Of a stretch of 64,000 nucleotides of DNA, positions 1,717-25,083 are shown in pieces; the first letter of the stretch is position 1; each line of letters starts with the position of its first letter. The stretch covers positions 2,764-66,763 of the forward strand of contig JAZUAM010000011.1 of NCBI GenBank assembly GCA_045637985.1, given 5' to 3'. Under the pieces are notes generated by a model. The model did no database searches. It saw only the letters and a program-made list of their open reading frames with translations, and was not told where the DNA came from. A program made the translations under genes and the position numbers. Source of the DNA: Alphaproteobacteria bacterium (GTDB lineage Bacteria > Pseudomonadota > Alphaproteobacteria > RF32 > CAG-239).

Positions 1717-3418
1717 CGGTTTTGAGATAAATTTGGATGAAGATAAGCTTGATAAAATGATTAACGAGCAAATGATGCCTGTTAATATGGTTGATGCTGA
1801 TTTCGAAGGATATAAGAATTTGAGCGAGGGAGATAAAAAAGCCCTTAATCATTTAATTAAAGCTGCCAAAATCTTAAATGATGTTGCATTGGAACAAGAC
1901 CACCCTTTAAACAGAAAATTAAAAAAAGCTCTTGAAGAAAATGCCGCAGTTAATCAACATGCCATGAAGGCATTGAAAATTTTTAATTCGCTTAACGGTG
2001 TTTGCGGATTAAACGGATTGGATGCGGAACCGATTGAAATTTTTAAAAATGTTCACGGATATAAGGGACGCAATTATTATCCGGCTGATTTGTCCGTTGA
2101 TGAATTTCATAATATATTGTTCAAAATGTTGAGAGCAGAAAAATACAGCGAAGTGGCAAAAATAGTTTCGAACAGAACAATGGTTCGAAGAAACGGTGAA
2201 GAATTAAAAGCAATTGATTATACGGAATATTTTGCAAAAGAATTTTCTGAAGTTGCTAATGAACTGGAAGTTGCTGCATTTTATTCAACAGATAAAAATT
2301 TTAATGAATTTTTGTCATGGCAAGCGCAAGCTTTAATCCAGAATAATGAAGAAATGGATATGTTGGCTGATAAACACTGGGCTGATTTACAAAATACTCC
2401 GCTTGAATTTACGGTATCACGTGAAAATTATGATGATGAAATGACACCGACTATCTTTGAAAATGATGAATTAAAAACGTTGTTGGAAGAAAAAAATATA
2501 GCGGTAAATCCAAAAGATATGATTGGTGCCAGAGTTGGGATCATAAACCATAAAGGTACAGAGCTTATTTTGACTTTTAAAAAGTTGATGGCAAATTTGG
2601 CAAAATTGATGCCTTATAATGATAAATATGAACAAAAAGTAAATTCCGGTGATGAAGTAAAGCAGACGATGGTTGATGTTGATCTGGTTACATTACAGGG
2701 TGATTATGCTCAGTGTCGCGGCGGTATCACAACAGCTCAAAATTTACCTAATGATGATAAATTGGCCGTTAAAACAGGTGGCGGTCGCAGAAATGTATAT
2801 CACAGACAAGTAAGGATGTCCGGTGATAAAGAGCGAACAAAACGCCTGTTGGATAGTCTTTTGAAAAAAGAGTTTCATCAATATTATGATGAAGAAGCTG
2901 AACATATTTTTGTTATAGGGCATGAAAATGGCCATTCTTTGGGACCTGATAGCAGTTATAAAAATGCGCTGGGGATTTATCATCATATAATTGAGGAAAA
3001 TAAAGCTGATGTGGTATCAATAGCAATGATGCCGGAGTATGTGAAGGCCGGTGTTATTGATGATATTATGCTGAAGAAAATTTATGTAACTTGGATTATG
3101 AGAATGTTGCTTAAAGCAAAACCTCAACAAATACAACCTCACAGAGTTGGAGATTTAATTCATTTTAATTGGTTGATACGATATGGCGTTATAATAATAA
3201 CACCGGAAAATAAGATAACTTTGGATCTGACAAAAATGGAAAGTGCAATGAGTAAAATATTGGATAAAACTATTGAAATCCAATTATCAAAATCTGCTGC
3301 AAAAGCGAAAGAATTTATTGACACTAACTCTGAGTGGAGTACTTTGCACGACTATATAGCTCAAACGTTAATTAAGCTTGGTATTAAGCCATACAAAGAT
3401 ATAAGGACTTATTTATAA
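1703..3418 (+). CDS. Hypothetical protein with a zinc-hydrolase-like HExxH...E signature, possible metallopeptidase
   Basis: 571-aa ORF. It contains GHENGHSLGP followed about 20 residues later by EENKAD, a gluzincin-like HExxH plus downstream Glu arrangement. The family assignment is uncertain. Translationally coupled to sdaA: its stop overlaps the sdaA start. Confidence 0.4.
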   Translation: MTIISGFEINLDEDKLDKMINEQMMPVNMVDADFEGYKNLSEGDKKALNHLIKAAKILNDVALEQDHPLNRKLKKALEENAAVNQHAMKALKIFNSLNGVCGLNGLDAEPIEIFKNVHGYKGRNYYPADLSVDEFHNILFKMLRAEKYSEVAKIVSNRTMVRRNGEELKAIDYTEYFAKEFSEVANELEVAAFYSTDKNFNEFLSWQAQALIQNNEEMDMLADKHWADLQNTPLEFTVSRENYDDEMTPTIFENDELKTLLEEKNIAVNPKDMIGARVGIINHKGTELILTFKKLMANLAKLMPYNDKYEQKVNSGDEVKQTMVDVDLVTLQGDYAQCRGGITTAQNLPNDDKLAVKTGGGRRNVYHRQVRMSGDKERTKRLLDSLLKKEFHQYYDEEAEHIFVIGHENGHSLGPDSSYKNALGIYHHIIEENKADVVSIAMMPEYVKAGVIDDIMLKKIYVTWIMRMLLKAKPQQIQPHRVGDLIHFNWLIRYGVIIITPENKITLDLTKMESAMSKILDKTIEIQLSKSAAKAKEFIDTNSEWSTLHDYIAQTLIKLGIKPYKDIRTYL

Positions 3419-4800
3419 TGCACTATGTGTTGGAAGAAATTTTTGCGATAGGTATCGGCCCTTCAAGTTCACATACCGTTGGCCCTATGAAAGCCGCAAA
3501 AAGATTTGTTGATAATCTTATTGCTGATGACTTACTTGAAAAAGTGCACAGCCTTAAGGTTGATTTGTATGGTTCGTTAGCATTAACCGGTATCGGACAC
3601 GGAACATTGAAAGCTATTGTTTACGGACTTATGGGATTTATTGCAGAAGATGTGGATACCGAAAAACCATATTATGATTCCGTAAAAAGGGACAATATAT
3701 TGCATCTTGCACAACAAAAACCCATACCTTTTTGTTTAGATACAGACATGATCTTAAACAAAGATGTTTTCTTAAAAGAACATTCTAATGGTATGAAATT
3801 TACTGTTTGGGATGAGAATAAGAGAGAATTACTTTCAGAAACATATTTTTCTATCGGTGGCGGAACAATTTTGCGACAAGATGAATTCGGCAACTCATTG
3901 GCTAAGACAGTATATAATGTTCCTTATCAGTTTGATACCTGTACCGAATTACAAGAAATTTGCAAAAAATATGATTTAACTTTTTCTGATGTTGTTTTGC
4001 AAAACGAAGTTTCCATAAAAAAAGAACAGGATGTGTTTGCCTATTTGCATAAAATTCATAAAATGATGAATGATGCTATAGAACGAGGAATGAGAAATCA
4101 CGGTGTTCTGCCGGGCGGGTTGGAAGTTAAAAGAAGAGCTCCGGATATCTATGACAGAGTACGTGAAAAATTTTTGAACAATCAACAAGACGGGTTGGAA
4201 GTTATTGATTGGATAAACCTTTGGGGATTCGCCGCGGCAGAAGAAAATGCGGCCGGAGGCAGAGTAGTTACCGCACCTACAATGGGATCTGCAGGAATTT
4301 TGCCGGCAGTAATAAGATATTTTGAACGTTTTGCTTCTCATACCTCGCCTCTTTCGGTCGAGGAAGGAATTATTAAATTTTTAACCACTGCGGCGGCAAT
4401 TTGTTCTCTTTATCGCTCAAATGCATCTATTTCGGGCGCTGAGGTCGGTTGTCAAGGAGAAATCGGTGTTGCTTGTTCAATGGCTGCGGCAGGATTAGCG
4501 GCGGCAATGGGCGGTACAAATGAGCAAATTGAACAAGCCGCAGAAATTGCAATGGAACATAATCTGGGGCTGACATGTGATCCGGTAAACGGTCTGGTGC
4601 AAATACCTTGTATTGAAAGAAATGCCATGGGGGCTGTAAAAGCTATAAATTCAGCAAGACTGGCTTTGCGAAGTGATGGAAAACATATTGTTTCATTAGA
4701 TAGTGTTATAAAAACAATGTATGACACCGGAAAAGATATGAGTAACAGATATAAAGAAACATCGCTTGGCGGTTTAGCCGTTAATATTGCTAACTGTTAG
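3418..4800 (+). CDS. sdaA: L-serine dehydratase, single-chain iron-sulfur type
   Basis: 460 aa. The N-terminal [17 protein letters not shown] is the hallmark of Fe-S L-serine dehydratases. The C-terminal alpha-domain carries conserved Cys residues. Confidence 0.9.
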
Positions 4801-4882
4801 GAAACAAGATTATTTGCTTGCAGAAAAATGCCTTCGATATTAAAAATGATGTTGAAGGTGTTTTTGTGATAGTGAGGAAAAA

Positions 4883-5257
4883 ATGCTGGCAAAACTTTTT
4901 AAGGGTGAGTTGTCGTTAGGCGCAACTTTTTGGAAATTTGGTGTTTTGGGTTTAATTATTTTACATTATGCCTTAAAGATGTTTGCGTCTTTTTTGGCGG
5001 CACACCTGAAAGGACGTACCATATATGACTTTTTTATGCACCATTTTCATTTTGTGTATACCTCAAAATTAAGCTTATGGTGGGCACTTTGTTATATGGC
5101 TACTTTTTTGGTTTTGGTCGGATATTCATATAAGATTATTATCGCAGTTTGGCGTAGTGCGGCTGCTTATGATAAAAGTATTTGGTTAGCACAACTTGCG
5201 AGAATCGGCATTGTTTTAACTGTGTTTGCAATATGGTATCCTTTGTTGGTAAAATAG
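4883..5257 (+). CDS. Small hypothetical integral membrane protein
   Basis: 124-aa ORF with 3 to 4 hydrophobic helices. No recognisable family. Confidence 0.45.
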   Translation: MLAKLFKGELSLGATFWKFGVLGLIILHYALKMFASFLAAHLKGRTIYDFFMHHFHFVYTSKLSLWWALCYMATFLVLVGYSYKIIIAVWRSAAAYDKSIWLAQLARIGIVLTVFAIWYPLLVK

Positions 5258-5267
5258 GATTGGGTTA

Positions 5268-5420
5268 ATGAAATATTTGCTTGTTTTATTTTTTATTCTG
5301 TTTTTGTCAGGATGCATACAGGTTGGTGAATTTACTCCGGAAAGGCATGCTCAATATGAATTAGGTAAACCTGATTGTAATAAGACACCGGAAAAATGTA
5401 TTAATGGAATTCCTTGGTAA
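5268..5420 (+). CDS. Putative small lipoprotein (50 aa), not in the ORF track
   Basis: ATG at 5268, TAA at 5418. The signal peptide MKYLLVLFFILFLSGC ends in a lipobox Cys. Followed directly by a strong bidirectional terminator. Confidence 0.3.
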   Translation: MKYLLVLFFILFLSGCIQVGEFTPERHAQYELGKPDCNKTPEKCINGIPW

Positions 5421-5456
5421 AAAGATAAAAGCTCTGTAAAATTACAGAGCTTTTTG
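5421..5456. terminator. Bidirectional rho-independent terminator
   Basis: An A-run, then GCTCTGTAA/TTACAGAGC perfect 9-bp stem, then TTTTT. It sits between convergent genes. Confidence 0.6.
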
Positions 5457-5459
5457 TAT

Positions 5460-5885
5460 CTATTTTATTTTGACTAAACGACCTCTTTCGTTAAATCTGA
5501 GGCCTTTATCTTGAAGAGCAAGACGTCCGCTTTCATCAAAAGTATAATAATAAACGAGTTCTCGTTCGTTTATTTTGTTGGCATCAACAACACCTTCGGC
5601 AACTCCCCAGAGGATTGATATCGGCCATGTCAACAAATTGAGTGTTCCATAGAGGTATTGTTCACTTTGTCCAGCATTGCCTGAAGCTAAATAAAAATTA
5701 CCGACACCGGGTAACAAATTCAACAAACCTGCAGTAGCCGGTGATGCAGGCTTTTCCCAATTTCCTGCAGGCGTTTCAACAGAAATGCCATATCCTTTTA
5801 ATTCTCTGATTGTTGTTTTTTCTTGATATGTTAATGATGTACAAGCTGATAACAACATTGTACTGATAATTAAAATTTTTTTCAT
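5460..5885 (-). CDS. Hypothetical lipoprotein
   Basis: 141 aa. Signal peptide MKKILIISTMLLSAC with a lipobox. No known family. Confidence 0.55.
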   Translation of the reverse strand: MKKILIISTMLLSACTSLTYQEKTTIRELKGYGISVETPAGNWEKPASPATAGLLNLLPGVGNFYLASGNAGQSEQYLYGTLNLLTWPISILWGVAEGVVDANKINERELVYYYTFDESGRLALQDKGLRFNERGRLVKIK

Positions 5886-6161
5886 AGTCCAACTTTCCTT
5901 TTATAAATATTTACAAAAAAAGCCACCTTGATGAAAGGTGACTGGAAGTTGGTAACTATTTCACATAATATAGTGCAGCATATTGACTGCAAATACAGCT
6001 ATTTTGCTGCCTTCCAGTCAATTTATTTAAATAACTGTCAGGCATGCAAAATTTAACGTCCTTACATACAACGGACGTATGTGAAATGAGGTTACCACAC
6101 CCCAGACAAGTCATCATCTTGCCTGTCTTTTATACTAAATATCAGCAAGCAATAAGTCAAA

Positions 6162-7323: not shown

Positions 7324-9300
7324 TTAACGCAAGCTGTTTTTGACAGAATCAATCACTTCTTCTACCGTTATACCAAAATATTTGTATAACTCACTTCCCG
7401 GTGCAGAAGCGCCAAAACCATCCATTCCTATAATATCACCGGTTAATCCTACGTATTTTTCCCACCCAAATTTGGATGCTGCTTCTATAGCAATGCGTGG
7501 TTTATTCCCCAAAATTTGTTCTTGATAGGTAATCGGTTGTGCATCAAACAGTTCTGCGCAAGGCATTGAAACAACAACAACATCTATTCCCTCTGCTTTA
7601 AGCTTGTTGTAAGCTTCAACGGCCAAAGCAACTTCAGATCCTGTTGCAATCAATGTAGCTTGTCGTTTTTTATCATCTCCGGCAATAATATATGCACCTA
7701 AAGATGTTTTGTTTTCTTTGCTATCAGAACGCAAAATAGGTAAATTTTGGCGACTAAGAGCCAAAATACTCGGAGTATTTTTTTGTTCAATAGCTAACTC
7801 CCAAGCCTCCGCCGTTTCCACAATGTCACAAGGACGAAATGTCAGCATATTTGGCATTGCACGAAATGATGCCAGATGCTCAATCGGCTGATGTGTCGGT
7901 CCGTCTTCTCCGACACCTATAGAATCGTGTGTCATAACGTATATTGTATGTAGTTTCATTAATGAAGCCAGACGCATTGCAGGACGTAAGTAGTCTGAAA
8001 AAACAAAAAATGTTCCGCCAAACGGTATAATACCGCCATGTAATGCCAAACCGTTCATTATGGCACCCATTGCGTGTTCTCTTACACCATATTCTATGTT
8101 GTTGCCATTGTAGTCGTCTGCCAATATATTTTTGCTTGTTTTTGTTAACACCATGTTGGGGCCGGCTAAATCAGCCGTTCCGCCTATTAACTGAGGCAGA
8201 TGCGGCATTATAGTTTCTAAACACATCTGTGAAGCCTTACGTGATGCAACATTTGTTTGTTCTTTAATTGATTGCTCTTTCAGCTTATCAAGTTCTTTGT
8301 TCCAATCCTTTGGCAATTTACCGGAAATAATATCTAAAAATTCTTTTCCCTTCGCTTTGACTTTTTTATCCCATTCTTTAACTAAACCTGAATTTCTTTT
8401 TCCGGCAATTCGCCAATTATTCATAATAGGCTCAGGAACTTCAAAAGGAGCTGCATCCCATCCTAAGCGTTTACGGGTAAGAGCTAATTCTTCAGCGCCA
8501 AGAGGCGAGCCATGACATTTGGGTGTTCCGCATTTGTTGGGAGAGCCAAAACCTATAACAGTCTTACAAGCTATCAAAGTAGGCTTGTTGGATCTTTTAG
8601 CTTTTTTGATAGCTCTGTCAATTTGACAATAATTATGTCCATCTATTTTTATTGTATTCCAACCATTAGCCTTAAAACGTGCTATTTGGTTAGTTGATGA
8701 TGCCAAACTGACATTGCCGTCAATAGTGACATTGTTATCATCCCAAAAGGCTATTAACTTGTTTAATTTCCAATGACCGGCTAAGGCTATGGCTTCTTCG
8801 GAAATACCTTCCATTAAACAACCGTCACCCATAATCACATAAGTATAGTGATTGCATACATCTGCACCATATTTTGATGAAATTATTTTTTCAGCCAAAG
8901 CCATTCCGACTGCAGTTGCAATTCCCTGTCCTAACGGACCTGTAGTTGTATCAATTCCTTCAAGATGCCCGTATTCCGGATGTCCGGCTGTTTTGGCGCC
9001 AAGTTGGCGGAAATTTTTTAAATCTTCAATATTTATATCTTTGTATCCCAAAAGATAAAAAATTGAATACAACATACTTGATGCATGTCCGCCTGATAAA
9101 ACGAACCTGTCGCGATCAAACCAACGAGGATTTTGCGGATCTGTTTTTATGTATTTAGAAAAAAGCATTGTTGCAACATCTGCTATTCCAAGAGGCATTC
9201 CCGGATGACCCGATTTTGCTTTTTCAATCATTTCGGCTGACAAAAAACGTATGGCGTTAGCCATTTGTTTTTCTTTGGCATGACAAGAACATAAAAACAT
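7324..9300 (-). CDS. tkt: Transketolase
   Basis: 658 aa. ANAIRFLSAEMIEKAKSGHPGMPLG thiamine-diphosphate-binding N-terminus, with transketolase central and C-terminal domains. An AGGAGA Shine-Dalgarno sits 6 nt before the ATG at 9300. An alternative start is at 9264. Confidence 0.92.
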   Translation of the reverse strand: MFLCSCHAKEKQMANAIRFLSAEMIEKAKSGHPGMPLGIADVATMLFSKYIKTDPQNPRWFDRDRFVLSGGHASSMLYSIFYLLGYKDINIEDLKNFRQLGAKTAGHPEYGHLEGIDTTTGPLGQGIATAVGMALAEKIISSKYGADVCNHYTYVIMGDGCLMEGISEEAIALAGHWKLNKLIAFWDDNNVTIDGNVSLASSTNQIARFKANGWNTIKIDGHNYCQIDRAIKKAKRSNKPTLIACKTVIGFGSPNKCGTPKCHGSPLGAEELALTRKRLGWDAAPFEVPEPIMNNWRIAGKRNSGLVKEWDKKVKAKGKEFLDIISGKLPKDWNKELDKLKEQSIKEQTNVASRKASQMCLETIMPHLPQLIGGTADLAGPNMVLTKTSKNILADDYNGNNIEYGVREHAMGAIMNGLALHGGIIPFGGTFFVFSDYLRPAMRLASLMKLHTIYVMTHDSIGVGEDGPTHQPIEHLASFRAMPNMLTFRPCDIVETAEAWELAIEQKNTPSILALSRQNLPILRSDSKENKTSLGAYIIAGDDKKRQATLIATGSEVALAVEAYNKLKAEGIDVVVVSMPCAELFDAQPITYQEQILGNKPRIAIEAASKFGWEKYVGLTGDIIGMDGFGASAPGSELYKYFGITVEEVIDSVKNSLR

Positions 9301-9312
9301 TATTTTCTCCTG

Positions 9313-9969
9313 CTAATTTTTACAATTATTTGATGGACGATTTTTTTTGACTACTATCGGTTTTTTCTCGGAATCAGAGTATATAATTTCCTCATCTGAA
9401 TTTACCTCAAGATAAACATTATCTGTTGCGGGATTATTTTGTGCCGCAATTTCTTCATCTGACAAATAGCGATAATCGATGTCAAACATTTTGCGTGCTT
9501 TGGCTCCTGTATATTCGGTTTGTTTTATACCGAGATATATAGTAAAATCATTATATGGCGGCATCGTTATACGTGTTGTTGTTTGTCGACCTTTAACCAC
9601 TTCTTCTTTTGATGAAGTAGGAATCTTTAATGTCTGATGAAAACTACGTGTACCCAAATAATCTTCAGCATTTTGAGATGTTTTTACAAAAAATTCTATA
9701 TCAATTGTCGATATATTGCTTTTTTCTAATCGGCGAATCTTAAATAAAGGGGTAATAACGGCATAACGACGATTTGTAGCAGGTTCCGTATAACAATAAC
9801 TTTCAGATCCGACAAGATTAATCTGAAATTCGTCATATTTCCCGTTTGATTGATAAATTCGTGTAGTTTCGCGAGGTATTAATATTTCGGGACAATCATA
9901 TTCCGAATTATTTCCGGAAGAACAGGATGCAACTAAAAAAAGCATACAAAAAGCCAAAAAATATTTCAT
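9313..9969 (-). CDS. Hypothetical lipoprotein
   Basis: 218 aa. MKYFLAFCMLFLVASCSS lipoprotein signal. No family recognised. Confidence 0.55.
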   Translation of the reverse strand: MKYFLAFCMLFLVASCSSGNNSEYDCPEILIPRETTRIYQSNGKYDEFQINLVGSESYCYTEPATNRRYAVITPLFKIRRLEKSNISTIDIEFFVKTSQNAEDYLGTRSFHQTLKIPTSSKEEVVKGRQTTTRITMPPYNDFTIYLGIKQTEYTGAKARKMFDIDYRYLSDEEIAAQNNPATDNVYLEVNSDEEIIYSDSEKKPIVVKKNRPSNNCKN

Positions 9970-21188: not shown

Positions 21189-21878
21189 ATGCGTGTTTTA
21201 TTGGTAGAAGATGATTTTGCAATCTCGCAAAGTATTGAAACCATGCTTAAAAAGGAAGGTATGATAGTTGATACTACCGATTTGGGCGAGGAAGGATTCG
21301 AGATTGGCAAGCTTTATGATTATGACATTATCATCCTTGATTTGATGTTGCCTGATATGAACGGTTATGAGGTTTTGCGTAATTTACGTGCATCAAAAGT
21401 AAATACTCCTGTTTTGATTTTATCCGGTTTGAGTGAACCCGATAAAAAAGTTAAAGGTTTGGGATATGGCGCTGATGACTACTTAACAAAACCTTTTGAT
21501 AAAAGTGAGTTATTGGCTCGCATTCATGCTGTTGTTCGTCGTTCAAAAGGACATTCAGAATCAATTATCAACACCGGAGATGTTGAGGTTAATTTGGACA
21601 CGCAAACAGTTTCTGTTTGTGGGAAAACTCTACACCTTACAGGAAAAGAATACGGAATTATGGAGTTGTTATCTTTGCGTAAGGGATCTACTCTTAATAA
21701 AGATCAATTCTTAAATCATTTGTATGGTGGTATTGATGAACCTGAATTGAAAATTATTGATGTGTTTATTTGTAAGTTGCGTAAAAAACTGGAGAAAGCA
21801 TCAGGCGGTAAAAACTATATCGAAACTGTTTGGGGTCGCGGTTATGTTCTGCGTGATCCGGATGAGAAAAAAGAATAG
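21189..21878 (+). CDS. ctrA: Cell-cycle response regulator CtrA (OmpR family)
   Basis: 229 aa. Near-identical to canonical CtrA over long stretches: [91 protein letters not shown]. Confidence 0.9.
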
Positions 21879-21949
21879 TGTTTCATATGGTTGAATAAAG
21901 ATAAGCGCACCGATTGTTTGTCAGTGCGCTTTTTTTTGATGGTAATAAA

Positions 21950-22648
21950 TTATTTTCTTATTTCAAAATCAACAAAATTTGTCTTTAAATACTCTATTAA
22001 TTCATTGTCATTAAAAATATTTTCACAGTCATAATCGCTTGTTTCTTTATCACTTTCTATAGGACGATATTTTTGTAAAAAATATTTCTTTACCCCCTTT
22101 TTTTTGAGAGATTTTGCAATACCTAACAAATCTTGCGAATTTAAAAACCTTGGATCGCATGTTGTTCGACATTCAAAGTCAATATTGCTTTCCAATAATA
22201 AAAGCAAGCTTTGCTCAACTCGTTTTAAATGATCTGCTCCGGTTATTTTTTGATAATGTTTTGCTTCAAACGGAGCTTTGATATCTAACCCTACCCAATC
22301 AATCAGAGGCAAAACTTTTGCTAAATGCTCGGGGCGATATCCTCCGGTATGAAGCCCTATTTTGAAACCTAAATCTTTTACCTGCTTGATAGCATCATAC
22401 AAAGCATCTTGAACTAAAGGTTCGCCACCGGAAAAAGTTACGGCATCAAGCTTACCAACCCGACTTTTTAAGAAATCAACAAATAAATCCCAAGAAAAAT
22501 CATTCTCTTTTAATATCGGACGGATAGATGCATTATGACAAAAGGGACACATCCACGGGCATCCCTGCATAAATACAACAGCTGTTAATACCCCCGGAAA
22601 ATCAACGGCGCTGAATTTCTCAACGCCGCCAACTACAATTTTAGACAT
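21950..22648 (-). CDS. nrdG: Anaerobic ribonucleoside-triphosphate reductase activating protein (radical SAM)
   Basis: CPWMCPFCHN CxxxCxxC motif. The likely start is MSKIVVGG at 22648. This leaves a 13-nt gap after the small ORF upstream. Confidence 0.85.
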   Translation of the reverse strand: MSKIVVGGVEKFSAVDFPGVLTAVVFMQGCPWMCPFCHNASIRPILKENDFSWDLFVDFLKSRVGKLDAVTFSGGEPLVQDALYDAIKQVKDLGFKIGLHTGGYRPEHLAKVLPLIDWVGLDIKAPFEAKHYQKITGADHLKRVEQSLLLLLESNIDFECRTTCDPRFLNSQDLLGIAKSLKKKGVKKYFLQKYRPIESDKETSDYDCENIFNDNELIEYLKTNFVDFEIRK

Positions 22649-22661
22649 ATATGATGCTCGA

Positions 22662-22892
22662 TTATTCTGCTGCAATTGCATACGCATTGTCTTCTGTATG
22701 ACAAGCGCAACCATCAATCGCTTTTAATTCAGAAAAGTTTACACGAGAGCGAAATTCTGATTTTTTGCCTACATTGAATTCTGAATATGGGCGCAAATAT
22801 CCCATAACACGTGTCCATACTTCACAAGGCTGTCTTTCTTCATCTGCAAGTTTGATATCTTCAAAATTAACAGTGGTCATTTTTTTCTCCAT
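22662..22892 (-). CDS. Stand-alone glycyl-radical C-terminal segment of NrdD, in the same frame as nrdD but separated by two stop codons
   Basis: 76 aa with EVWTRVMGYLRP...FNVGKKSEFRSRV. This matches the NrdD C-terminal RVxGY glycyl-radical loop. It is in the same reading frame as the upstream nrdD ORF, behind TAA-AGT-TAA. Confidence 0.55.
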   Translation of the reverse strand: MEKKMTTVNFEDIKLADEERQPCEVWTRVMGYLRPYSEFNVGKKSEFRSRVNFSELKAIDGCACHTEDNAYAIAAE

Positions 22893-22916
22893 ATTTCTTT
22901 CTATAAAAAATTAACT

Positions 22917-24974
22917 TTATGCAACATCTTTTCTTGATGCAGCGGCTCTCTTGGCTGCCTTTTTCTCCTCATCGCAGATTGGGCAGTACTTGTGTTCTCC
23001 TGAAATATATCCATGTTTCGGACAAATGGAAAAAGTAGGAGTTATGGTAATGTACGGCAAACGATAGTTTGTCAAAACACGTTTTACAATGTCACGGCAA
23101 ACTTTAGCAGATGAAATGCGTTGTCCCATATACAAGTGCAAAACTGTTCCACCGGTATATTTGGTCTGTAGTGTCGACTGCAAATCAAGTGCTTCAAAAG
23201 GATCATCCGTATATCCGACAGGTAATTGAGAAGAGTTGGTATAAAACGGATTCTCTTTAGTTCCTGCTTGGATAATATCCACATAGCGTTTTTTATCTTC
23301 ACGAGCAAAACGGGTTGTAGCACCTTCGGCCGGAGTGGCTTCAAGATTGTACATATGACCTGTTTCTTCTTGAATCTTGATTAATTTTTCGCGGATATAA
23401 TCCAAGAATTTAATAGCAAATTCTTGTCCCCATTGATCGGCTATTGAATGCTCATCATTGGTAAAGTTTCGGATCATTTCATTGATACCATTAACACCAA
23501 TGGTAGAGAAGTGATTGCGAAGTGTTCCCAAATAACGTTTGGTGAACGGGAACAAACCACCATCAATTAAACGTTGAATCAATTTACGTTTAATTTCGAG
23601 CGAAATTTTAGAAAGTTCCAATAACTCATCAACACGGGCGTATAAACCGGCTTCATCACCTTTATAAACATAACCTAAGCGAGCGCAGTTAAAAGTAACC
23701 ACTCCGATAGAGCCGGTCTGTTCAGCTGAACCGAACAAACCGTTTCCGCGAGCTAACAATTCGCGCAAGTCAAGCTGCAAACGGCAACACATTGAGCGGA
23801 TTTGTCCCGGTTTTAATACTGAATTGATGAAATTTTGGAAATAAGGCAACCCATATTTAGCGGTCATCTCAAACAACAATTCGGTGTTTTCATCTTCCCA
23901 CGGGAAGTCCGGTGTCATATTGTATGTCGGAATCGGGAATGTAAACGGACGACCTTTAATATCACCTTTCATCATAACTTCAATATATGCTTTGTTTATC
24001 ATATGCATTTCTTCTTGAAGTTCGCCATATGTAAATTCTTGTTCAACACCGGCAATAATAGGATGAGTTTCGCGCAAATCTTCCGGACATACCCAGTCGA
24101 ATGTAAAGTTAGTAAACGGTGTCTGAGATCCCCAACGTGACGGAACATTAAGATTGTAGATAAGTTCTTGCATGCATTGATATACTTGTTTGTATGTCAA
24201 GCCATCTTTTCTGATGTATGGAGCCAAATAGGTATCTACCGATGAAAATGCTTGTGCGCCGGCCCATTCATTCTGCAATGTTCCCATAAAATTGACCATT
24301 TGTCCCACAGCGGCAGAAAGATGTTTTGCCGGACCTGCTTCAGCTTTACCGGCAACACCGTTAAAACCTTCGTGAAGAAGATTTTTCAAAGACCAACCGG
24401 CACAATATGCAGCCAACATACTCAAATCGTGAATGTGGATATCGCCGTTGCGATGAGCCTCGCCGACAGCAGCAGGATAAACATGGCTGAGCCAATAGTT
24501 AGCCGTAACTTTACCGGATACGTTCAGAATCAATCCACCATTTGAATAACCTTGGTTTGCGTTTTCGTTAATACGCCAGTCTAATTTTTCCAAATACTCA
24601 TTAACAGAGCTTTCTACATCGACCATAACCTTGTGGTCCTGACGAGCACGCTGACGTTGATCTCGGTACAAAATATAAGCCTTAGCAGTAACAAAATAGT
24701 TTGCGGAAATCAAAACCTGTTCTACTACATCTTGGATTTGTTCAATCGACGGTAAAATTTCTGCAAATTTATGCTTTAATACTTTCAGAACTTGGGCCGT
24801 AAGCAACCAACTTTCTTCTTCTCCAAATTCTTTTGTTGTGGTGCCGGCTTTTTTAATAGCATTGTATATTTTAGAGCTATCAAACGGAGCTAGGGTACCA
24901 TCTCTTTTGGTAATATTTTCAATCCCTATTTTTTCTTCAGCGACTGAGGTCATTTTGTACTCTGATTCTGACAT
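22917..24974 (-). CDS. nrdD: Anaerobic ribonucleoside-triphosphate reductase (class III) catalytic core with ATP-cone and Zn-ribbon, lacking the glycyl-radical tail
   Basis: 685 aa. N-terminal ATP-cone, class III RNR core, C-terminal CPKHGY...CPIC Zn-ribbon. The ORF then ends without the glycine-radical motif. Confidence 0.88.
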   Translation of the reverse strand: MSESEYKMTSVAEEKIGIENITKRDGTLAPFDSSKIYNAIKKAGTTTKEFGEEESWLLTAQVLKVLKHKFAEILPSIEQIQDVVEQVLISANYFVTAKAYILYRDQRQRARQDHKVMVDVESSVNEYLEKLDWRINENANQGYSNGGLILNVSGKVTANYWLSHVYPAAVGEAHRNGDIHIHDLSMLAAYCAGWSLKNLLHEGFNGVAGKAEAGPAKHLSAAVGQMVNFMGTLQNEWAGAQAFSSVDTYLAPYIRKDGLTYKQVYQCMQELIYNLNVPSRWGSQTPFTNFTFDWVCPEDLRETHPIIAGVEQEFTYGELQEEMHMINKAYIEVMMKGDIKGRPFTFPIPTYNMTPDFPWEDENTELLFEMTAKYGLPYFQNFINSVLKPGQIRSMCCRLQLDLRELLARGNGLFGSAEQTGSIGVVTFNCARLGYVYKGDEAGLYARVDELLELSKISLEIKRKLIQRLIDGGLFPFTKRYLGTLRNHFSTIGVNGINEMIRNFTNDEHSIADQWGQEFAIKFLDYIREKLIKIQEETGHMYNLEATPAEGATTRFAREDKKRYVDIIQAGTKENPFYTNSSQLPVGYTDDPFEALDLQSTLQTKYTGGTVLHLYMGQRISSAKVCRDIVKRVLTNYRLPYITITPTFSICPKHGYISGEHKYCPICDEEKKAAKRAAASRKDVA

Positions 24975-25036: not shown

Positions 25037-25083
25037 ATACAATATATAGTTTTAACAAAAAGTAAAGACACTAGATATAGTAT
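25037..25083. promoter_or_regulatory. Two putative NrdR boxes upstream of nrdD
   Basis: ATACAATATATAGTTT (25037-25052) and ACACTAGATATAGTAT (25068-25083). Each matches the acaCwAtATaTwGtgt consensus at 14 of 16 positions. Centres are 31 bp apart, 60 to 110 bp upstream of the nrdD start. Confidence 0.4.

Follow-up and report, generated by a model that had tools for sequence, protein, structure and literature searches.

Class III ribonucleotide reductases (RNRs) have been characterised as single-chain NrdD proteins that are accompanied by the activase NrdG, as in phage T4, Escherichia coli, Thermotoga maritima (4COI/4U3E) and Prevotella copri (8P23), and all NrdD proteins characterised so far carry the glycine loop at the C-terminus of the catalytic chain itself. 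The subfamily NF006126/PRK08270 of these enzymes has an MCCR finger loop. The locus described here lies on the minus strand of a stretch of 64,000 nucleotides from an Alphaproteobacteria bacterium (contig JAZUAM010000011.1 of assembly GCA_045637985.1); this whole 64-kb stretch is called the window, and all coordinates of the locus are positions in it. The locus shares with the single-chain systems the ATP-cone, the barrel, the MCCR motif, the zinc ribbon, the RVxGY loop, a radical S-adenosylmethionine (radical-SAM) activase and a putative NrdR-type operator, but the glycine loop is located on a separate protein of 72 amino acids (aa), here also called the tail. As judged from the comparisons given below, the locus very probably encodes a functional two-subunit class III RNR, the chemistry of which is expected to be the same as that of single-chain NrdD.

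Small stand-alone proteins with a radical glycine, as found here, are known as GrcA/YfiD of E. coli and Y06I of phage T4. According to a 2026 review such proteins are known only for the formate-lyases among the classes of glycyl-radical enzymes (GREs) (PMC13450708). GrcA is activated by the activase of its enzyme and docks into a large subunit without functional glycine loop; the same is proposed for the small protein of the window, which would likewise work in trans. Phage-borne copies exist in both cases, Y06I for pyruvate formate-lyase (PFL) and tail genes for the present system. In contrast to GrcA, which is an optional rescue of the full-length enzyme after cleavage by oxygen (O2), the small protein described here would be obligatory, because its adjacent partner never carries a glycine of its own. 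An original prediction, made from the letters of the window alone, had drawn the analogy to autonomous glycyl-radical cofactors. The analogy is apt for the proposed mode of working and fails for the family: no match of the tail to the Gly_radical (PF01228, IPR011140) or GrcA models was obtained at E<=0.01, and because it matched NRDD/NrdD models only, the tail is not considered a member of the GrcA family.

Other reductases and GREs consisting of more than one chain differ from this arrangement. The class II RNR of Pseudomonas aeruginosa is split into NrdJa and NrdJb (Crona et al. 2015, cited in PMC9669993). It resembles the present locus in its two adjacent genes, in the C-terminal module being encoded second and in an extra element ending the first piece, and it is unlike it in being a B12 class II enzyme with a large NrdJb that carries reducing cysteines and a zinc finger and not the radical site. 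Benzylsuccinate synthase (alpha-beta-gamma) and 4-hydroxyphenylacetate decarboxylase are GREs that need small accessory polypeptides, but there the glycine stays on the large subunit and the small ones are iron-sulfur (Fe-S) or structural polypeptides (in part after PMC13450708). No description of a two-chain NrdD was found in open-access full text, and other papers may hold one. Moreover, the small protein lacks an NCBIfam model, its relatives in phages are filed by PHROGs as phrog_4132 with 'unknown function', and in the source annotations the small protein is hypothetical or bears the name of the full enzyme and the large one is called a complete reductase.

Division of NrdD between two adjacent genes

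The large subunit scored 1112 bits against NF006126 (cut-off 548; profile positions 3-661 of 684), lacks the radical glycine and has the C-terminus CPKHGYISGEHKYCPICDEEKKAAKRAAASRKDVA, followed by TAA. The small open reading frame (ORF) downstream of it matched positions 531-562 of the 562 positions of Pfam NRDD (E=2.7e-8) and positions 649-682 of NF006126, and its product contains EVWTRVMGYLRP...FNVGKKSEF. With the RVMGY loop found in this ORF, the split of nrdD and the position of the glycyl-radical tail on a separate small ORF were confirmed as originally predicted. On the T. maritima enzyme (4COI, chain of 651 residues) the large ORF was aligned with residues 104-612 and a profile of the tail with residues 613-645. 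As the two alignments cover these ranges, the large and the small protein are an exact, non-overlapping partition of canonical NrdD. Only the tail profile could be aligned in this way, as a phmmer search of PDB sequences with a single tail gave no match at E<=1. Residue G27 of the small subunit, which is predicted to bear the radical, was aligned with the glycine of T. maritima RIVGY and is invariant in 77 tails.

The finger loop in the ten-stranded barrel of the large subunit reads MCCR, and its residues C396, C397 and R398 are invariant in 37 diverse homologues. In the zinc ribbon, C651-P-K-H654...C664-P-I-C667, the three cysteines C651, C664 and C667 are invariant and H654 replaces the second ribbon cysteine, as in most of the NrdD subfamily, a cysteine being present there in some fused forms. 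Of the features by which a class III RNR is recognised, the barrel with its finger loop, the zinc ribbon and an adjacent NrdG were found, and the RVxGY loop was found on the separate 72-aa protein instead of on the same polypeptide. A double-cysteine finger loop suits either formate or thioredoxin as reductant (Burnim et al., PMC9669993). As a separate observation, some fused relatives (P0134, P0138, P0151, P0172, P0192 and P0202) carry a thioredoxin/glutaredoxin-like domain with a CPNC motif after the glycine loop, and with this appended domain a double-cysteine NrdD would have its reductant built in.

The glycyl-radical domain of P. copri NrdD (residues 676-739) comprises a zinc site, a buried loop with Gly711 and a surface tail (PMC11226230). 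In the window the cut lies within this domain: the ribbon with the zinc site remains part of the barrel chain, and the glycine loop and the tail are split off. As stated in the original prediction, the 685-aa NrdD ends with TAA just past the ribbon; 18 residues lie between the last ribbon cysteine and the C-terminus (...KDVA). In fused relatives 8 residues connect the last ribbon cysteine with the arginine of RVxGY, usually in the form CxxC-G, whereas in split forms the typical motif is CxxC-D and the chain ends about 17 residues later (median of the split representatives), and the core of the small subunit is preceded by about 17 residues in the clade of the window. Together, approximately 35 junction residues are present in split forms and absent from fused forms.

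The 3' end of nrdD reads ...TPTFSICPKHGYISGEHKYCPICDEEKKAAKRAAASRKDVA, followed by TAA-AGT-TAA. The second TAA had been placed eight codons after the first, but it follows after a single AGT codon; the small ORF opens with its first ATG eight codons past the first stop and six past the second. A second ATG lies four codons past the first one. The 76-aa ORF of the original prediction is thus present, but since the GGAG and the second ATG are conserved in relatives, the true start is most likely the latter, with a product of 72 aa. The small-subunit sequence opens with MTTVNFEDIKLADEERQPCEVWTRVMGYLRPYSEFNVGKKSEFRSRV, which is followed by a Cys-rich variable stretch and the conserved end ...IAAE, and one tryptic peptide of the 72-aa protein is VMGYLRPYSEFNVGK. 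The Cys-rich C-terminal third varies within the clade (GCACHCE, CGCGC, CFCES) and always ends in AAE. Two cysteines that are common in the clade are missing from the tail of the window: SRVNF stands in place of the SRVCF of most relatives, and CHTE in place of the CHCE of close relatives. The Cys-rich stretch might serve in metal binding or redox chemistry.

The features of the locus are compiled in Table 1. As originally predicted, an intact nrdG begins 13 nt past the small-subunit stop; Radical_SAM and Fer4_12 domains were matched, and the TIGR02495 score exceeds the cut-off. A pair of NrdR-box-like palindromes is located 63-109 nt 5' of the nrdD start codon, and these two are the sole matches to ACACWANATNTWGTNT with 0-1 mismatches in the window. 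A consensus of this type and a spacing of about 31 bp are typical of NrdR operators, as reportedly described by Rodionov and Gelfand in 2005. The genes of the large subunit, the small subunit and NrdG are predicted to form one three-gene operon, which ends at a putative terminator and is apparently NrdR-regulated. Convergent with the nrdG end of this operon lies a gene for a response regulator, which we take to be similar to alphaproteobacterial CtrA and which also neighbours the operon in an independent assembly (L253).

Table 1. Features of the split nrdD locus and its surroundings, with positions in the 64-kb window
Feature	Position	Strand	Remarks
nrdD, large subunit	22917-24974	-	685 aa; ATP-cone and Pfam NRDD positions 1-532/562, E=2.8e-177
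First stop codon TAA	22919-22917	-	end of nrdD
Second TAA	22913-22911	-	single AGT codon between the two stops
Spacer between nrdD and small subunit	22881-22916	-	36 nt: AGT, second TAA, A/T-rich stretch, GGAG
Shine-Dalgarno GGAG	22890-22887	-	6 nt 5' of ATG 22880
Small ORF, glycyl-radical, with RVMGY	22662-22892	-	76 aa from first ATG (22892), frame shared with nrdD
Small subunit from conserved second ATG (22880), most likely product	22662-22880	-	72 aa
Predicted radical glycine codon GGA	22800-22802	-	G27 of the 72-aa protein, G31 of the 76-aa ORF
Cys-rich C-terminal third of small subunit	22665-22740	-	variable in the clade
nrdG, radical-SAM activase, NrdG2 type	21950-22648	-	232 aa; TIGR02495 199 bits (cut-off 131)
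Paired NrdR-box-like palindromes	25037-25052, 25068-25083		16 bp each, starts 31 bp apart
Terminator-like hairpin	21903-21931	-	11-bp stem, 6 G-C pairs, T-rich run; 19 nt after nrdG stop
Response regulator, presumably CtrA-like	21189-21878	+	229 aa

The split among relatives and in the NrdD subfamily

A scan with one genome per species yielded 288 relatives, of which the best 80, with large subunits 85-96% identical to that of the window, were examined. The contigs of two of these end before the region, and the remaining 78 loci together with the window gave 79 informative loci. The comparison of continuous versus split nrdD in related genomes, which had been proposed along with the original prediction, found the glycine loop on a separate ORF in 79 of the 79. 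The spacer between nrdD and the tail measures 28-44 nt, and in every locus GGAG (in a few GGAGG or AGGAG) is located 5' of an ATG, the product of which begins with M(T/N)T(I/V)N.... The tail ORF lies in frame 0, +1 and +2 relative to nrdD in 24, 32 and 23 loci, respectively. The frame shared by both ORFs of the window, on which the original prediction laid emphasis, is therefore real but a coincidence, and due to the varying frames read-through cannot be the general mechanism.

For the tail a median number of nonsynonymous substitutions per site (dN) of 0.11, a median number of synonymous substitutions per site (dS) of 1.28 and a dN/dS of 0.084 were determined (48 gap-free codons, 78 loci). 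The dN/dS of the large gene is 0.036, and synonymous change is saturated. Across the 79 loci the C-termini of both proteins are invariant (...VA for the large and ...AAE for the small subunit), and the 77 aligned tails have 18 invariant columns, including R24, V25, M26, G27 and Y28. The hallmarks of a pseudogene, namely relaxed selection, a lineage-specific lesion and extra frameshifts or stops, were not found among these loci. The comparisons indicate that the split already existed before at least 79 species-level genomes diverged and that it is a long-standing gene arrangement under selection. Additionally, a protein database search matched 196 stand-alone tails, the 120 listed ones having a length of 42-111 aa, and the nearest 120 large-subunit clusters listed are 678-707 aa long, none of them with a tail.

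The wider subfamily was covered by an exhaustive HMMER search, in which the large subunit was compared with 1.84 billion representatives of clusters at 50% identity and the best 150 were taken. These comprise 75 tail-less forms, 59 fused forms and 16 fragments, which corresponds to 75 tail-less among 134 informative representatives. The tail-less ones end 23-67 residues past TPTFSxC and have no glycine loop, and the distant split representatives are all metagenomic. Inteins occur in many representatives of the subfamily, and many exceed 1000 aa. A crude neighbour-joining tree, calculated for 117 representatives, places the window in a cluster of about 25 that is uniformly split, and outside of this cluster split and fused forms are interleaved. 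The closest fused representatives are 62% and 53% identical, and none is fused within the clade of the window.

Seven tail-less loci were inspected at the DNA level and all end at real stops. In 5 of the 7 a stand-alone tail gene was found nearby, in four different positions. In L090 (P0121, 73% identical, with an intein) the tail overlaps the stop of the large gene and is followed by nrdG, and in L088 the tail likewise overlaps the large gene. The tail is located 237 nt downstream in L089, past an inserted gene and nrdG at a distance of 1.7 kb from the large gene in L081, and 3 kb upstream in L087, where the tail gene contains an HNH endonuclease ORF. No tail gene was found within 5 kb in L083/L084 and L091. 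Several of the inspected contigs are phage-like and encode DnaB, a T4-type spanin, a prohead protease and chaperonins.

Some of these loci show additional peculiarities. On the 167-kb phage-like metagenomic contig of L087 (positions 1201-2143) the tail gene, located 5' of an intein-bearing nrdD, is broken between ...EIWTR and VMGYHRP... by a NUMOD4/HNH endonuclease ORF of 189 aa (1398-1967), and no group I intron was detected in this interruption at the Rfam gathering threshold. In L083 (positions 2504-6106) and L084 (182-kb contig) a 179-aa fragment of NRDD plus intein is followed by an unrelated ORF of 332 aa and a 701-aa NRDD protein; a split intein or another fission event could account for this apparent N-terminal cut of NrdD. 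Split operons of phages (L081:6116-7177; L140:2178-3419, 8346-9407; L143, L149, L127) contain additional genes, namely one for a DUF7487 protein between nrdD and nrdG and two for further radical-SAM proteins of about 415 and 354 aa, which flank the nrdD-tail pair and could be alternative activases.

Stand-alone tails in viral sequences

IMG/VR was scanned with the tail alignment, which resulted in 377 viral stretches, and the best 80 were examined (loci L092-L171, L182-L251). All of these 80 carry stand-alone tails of 51-118 aa with the core (D/E)ERQPCE(V/I)WTRVMGY. Within flanks of 10 kb an NrdD large subunit was found in 6 of the 80 loci, in each case immediately 5' of the tail, and an NrdG-like ORF in 0 of the 80. 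The other 74 loci (e.g. L190, L193, L201) have neither a large subunit nor NrdG within 10 kb; 34 of these 74 span at least 15 kb, and on some viral contigs the large gene may lie beyond the flanks. A close relative of the large subunit was detected in only ten viral contigs, none of which belongs to the tail-only set. Searches of GenBank phages with tblastn returned MT835493 (52%) and Clostridium phage phiCTP1 (44%) as the nearest to the large subunit, both fused, and with two tail sequences as queries no stand-alone tail and no isolate with the split form was found.

The conserved neighbours of the tail in phages comprise genes for an endolysin, an integrase, a Mu-type transposase, a transposition ATPase, a tail fibre and a reverse transcriptase. 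Because integrase, Mu-type transposase, endolysin and similar genes adjoin the tail, the tail-carrying phages are taken to be temperate. A lone phage tail looks like an auxiliary gene in the manner of Y06I of T4, and this would fit a small subunit that works in trans.

Proposed mechanism and alternative explanations

The functional two-piece class III RNR of the original prediction is strongly supported by the conservation of the arrangement, by purifying selection, by a ribosome binding site of the small gene's own and by rearranged versions in phage-like contigs. The locus is best read as encoding an obligate two-subunit enzyme with an exchangeable radical subunit. The large subunit would contribute the ATP-cone, the catalytic barrel with the cysteine finger loop and the zinc ribbon, and the small subunit only the buried RVMGY loop and the C-terminal tail. 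NrdG together with S-adenosylmethionine would abstract hydrogen from G27 when the small subunit is free or loosely docked, and the separate peptide would ease the access of the activase to the glycine. The radical-bearing loop would then dock in the barrel beside the MCCR finger loop (C396/C397), and the glycyl radical would give rise to a thiyl radical and nucleotide reduction as in single-chain NrdD. The extensions at the junction, about 17 residues on each side, probably replace the covalent link by a non-covalent interface, for which ...KRAAASRKDVA at the end of the large subunit and MTTVNFEDIKL in the small one are the predicted segments in the window. Since O2 cleaves glycyl-radical proteins at the glycine, damage would cost only the replaceable 8-kDa peptide and the 78-kDa barrel would be retained; the logic of replacing the oxygen-cleaved part is proven for GrcA and PFL (PMC8683613).

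Several points weigh against this interpretation. We infer the assembly of the chains and the formation of the radical on the small chain from homology, and the advantage in oxygen repair is speculative. The neighbour-joining tree is crude, and no count of fissions and no conclusion on monophyly was drawn from it. Furthermore, an AlphaFold2 model of the tail alone (77 sequences) reached a mean predicted local distance difference test (pLDDT) score of 57 with no residue at 70; such a low-confidence model would fit folding on binding, but proves nothing.

It is a serious possibility, although we stop short of calling it probable, that the small subunit is a consumable, exchangeable radical cartridge and that the tail-only phages boost or take over the anaerobic supply of deoxynucleoside triphosphates of the host. 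In this case, NrdG would charge the free peptide, which would plug into the barrel and be swapped after O2 damage.

The original prediction had also offered a fresh pseudogenisation in a decaying genome, by which a nonsense mutation truncated nrdD and the tail ORF was left as a decaying remnant. The two stops between the pieces, the frame shared in the window and the A+T-rich source genome (about 35% G+C) would suit this view, which is nevertheless rejected as highly improbable: the same split is common to all 79 loci with differing spacers and frames and without further lesions, dN/dS is as low as 0.08 and 0.04 at saturated synonymous change, the Shine-Dalgarno sequence, the start codon and both C-termini are conserved, nrdG is intact, and a point nonsense mutation cannot be the source of the approximately 35 residues added at the junction. 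That recoding by read-through or frameshifting restores a single NrdD of 770 residues is suggested by the common frame of the two window ORFs, which are 8 codons apart, and is hardly to be expected, given that the ORFs are in frame in only 24 of 79 loci with variable spacers of 28-44 nt, that in other relatives they overlap, are separated by nrdG and another gene or occur in reversed order, that the near-tandem TAAs are a strong stop, and that every tail has its own GGAG and ATG. The window probably originates from a metagenome-assembled genome, in which the stops might have been created by sequencing or assembly errors. However, the 75-nt junction with both TAAs, GGAG and ATG is unchanged in five metagenome assemblies, each made from a different sample, one of these five keeps the order of helix-turn-helix gene, 685-aa NrdD, 72-aa tail, NrdG and response regulator, the large protein recurs with 100% identity in several copies of independent origin, and dozens of species-level genomes are alike. 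Because the junction is identical in five independent assemblies, such an error is excluded for practical purposes.

Mobile elements offer another explanation, in which the cut is the footprint of an intron, an intein or a homing endonuclease and the pieces are rejoined by splicing; an interrupted nrdD of this kind occurs in phage T4. The NrdD subfamily is rich in inteins and an HNH ORF lies inside one phage-like tail gene, but the spacer of the clade (28-44 nt) is too short for such an element and contains stops and a ribosome binding site, an Rfam search of the window and of five related phage-like loci yielded no intron, and Pfam finds no intein domain in either protein of the window, which makes splicing very unlikely. 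As the historical origin of the fission the insertion of a mobile element is plausible. The class I NrdA of Aeromonas phage Aeh1, which Friedrich et al. reportedly described in 2007 as split by mobE and still active from two polypeptides, is a plausible model for this origin, given the nearby inteins and HNH ORFs. It is unlike the present case in its class, in its split site and in being confined to a single phage lineage, whereas the split described here is found in a bacterial clade without mobile element. Finally, the small protein might be a GrcA-like spare part for a full-length NrdD encoded elsewhere, the large ORF being inactive or repurposed. Stand-alone glycyl-radical rescue proteins are indeed known for pyruvate formate-lyase (PMC8683613, PMC13450708), and many phages carry the tail gene alone. 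Against this, the large ORF keeps all catalytic residues under a dN/dS of 0.036 and always adjoins the tail and nrdG in the loci of the clade, the nearest 120 large-subunit clusters listed are without a tail, and no fused form was seen among the loci of the clade that were examined. A spare part is for these reasons considered unlikely, and the obligate two-subunit enzyme is retained as the best reading.

Apparently, the split NrdD is a new architecture of a known kind of enzyme that is common and has been overlooked. RNR surveys that require the glycine motif would miscount genomes with split NrdD. A natural two-chain NrdD with a separable 8-kDa peptide provides a handle on the question of how the activase gains access to a glycine buried in the barrel. 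Moreover, the arrangement may offer gut bacteria with transient O2 exposure an inexpensive way to repair an essential enzyme, and the tail gene may be an auxiliary gene of phages. In reviews of the field it has been asked explicitly if equivalents of GrcA exist for other enzymes (PMC8683613, PMC13450708). If the small subunit is indeed a consumable radical cartridge, the formate-lyases would no longer be the only enzymes with an autonomous glycyl-radical protein, and the reductase would be the first glycyl-radical enzyme with two obligatory chains; this architecture would be present in about half of the 50%-identity clusters of the NrdD subfamily and yet unannotated.

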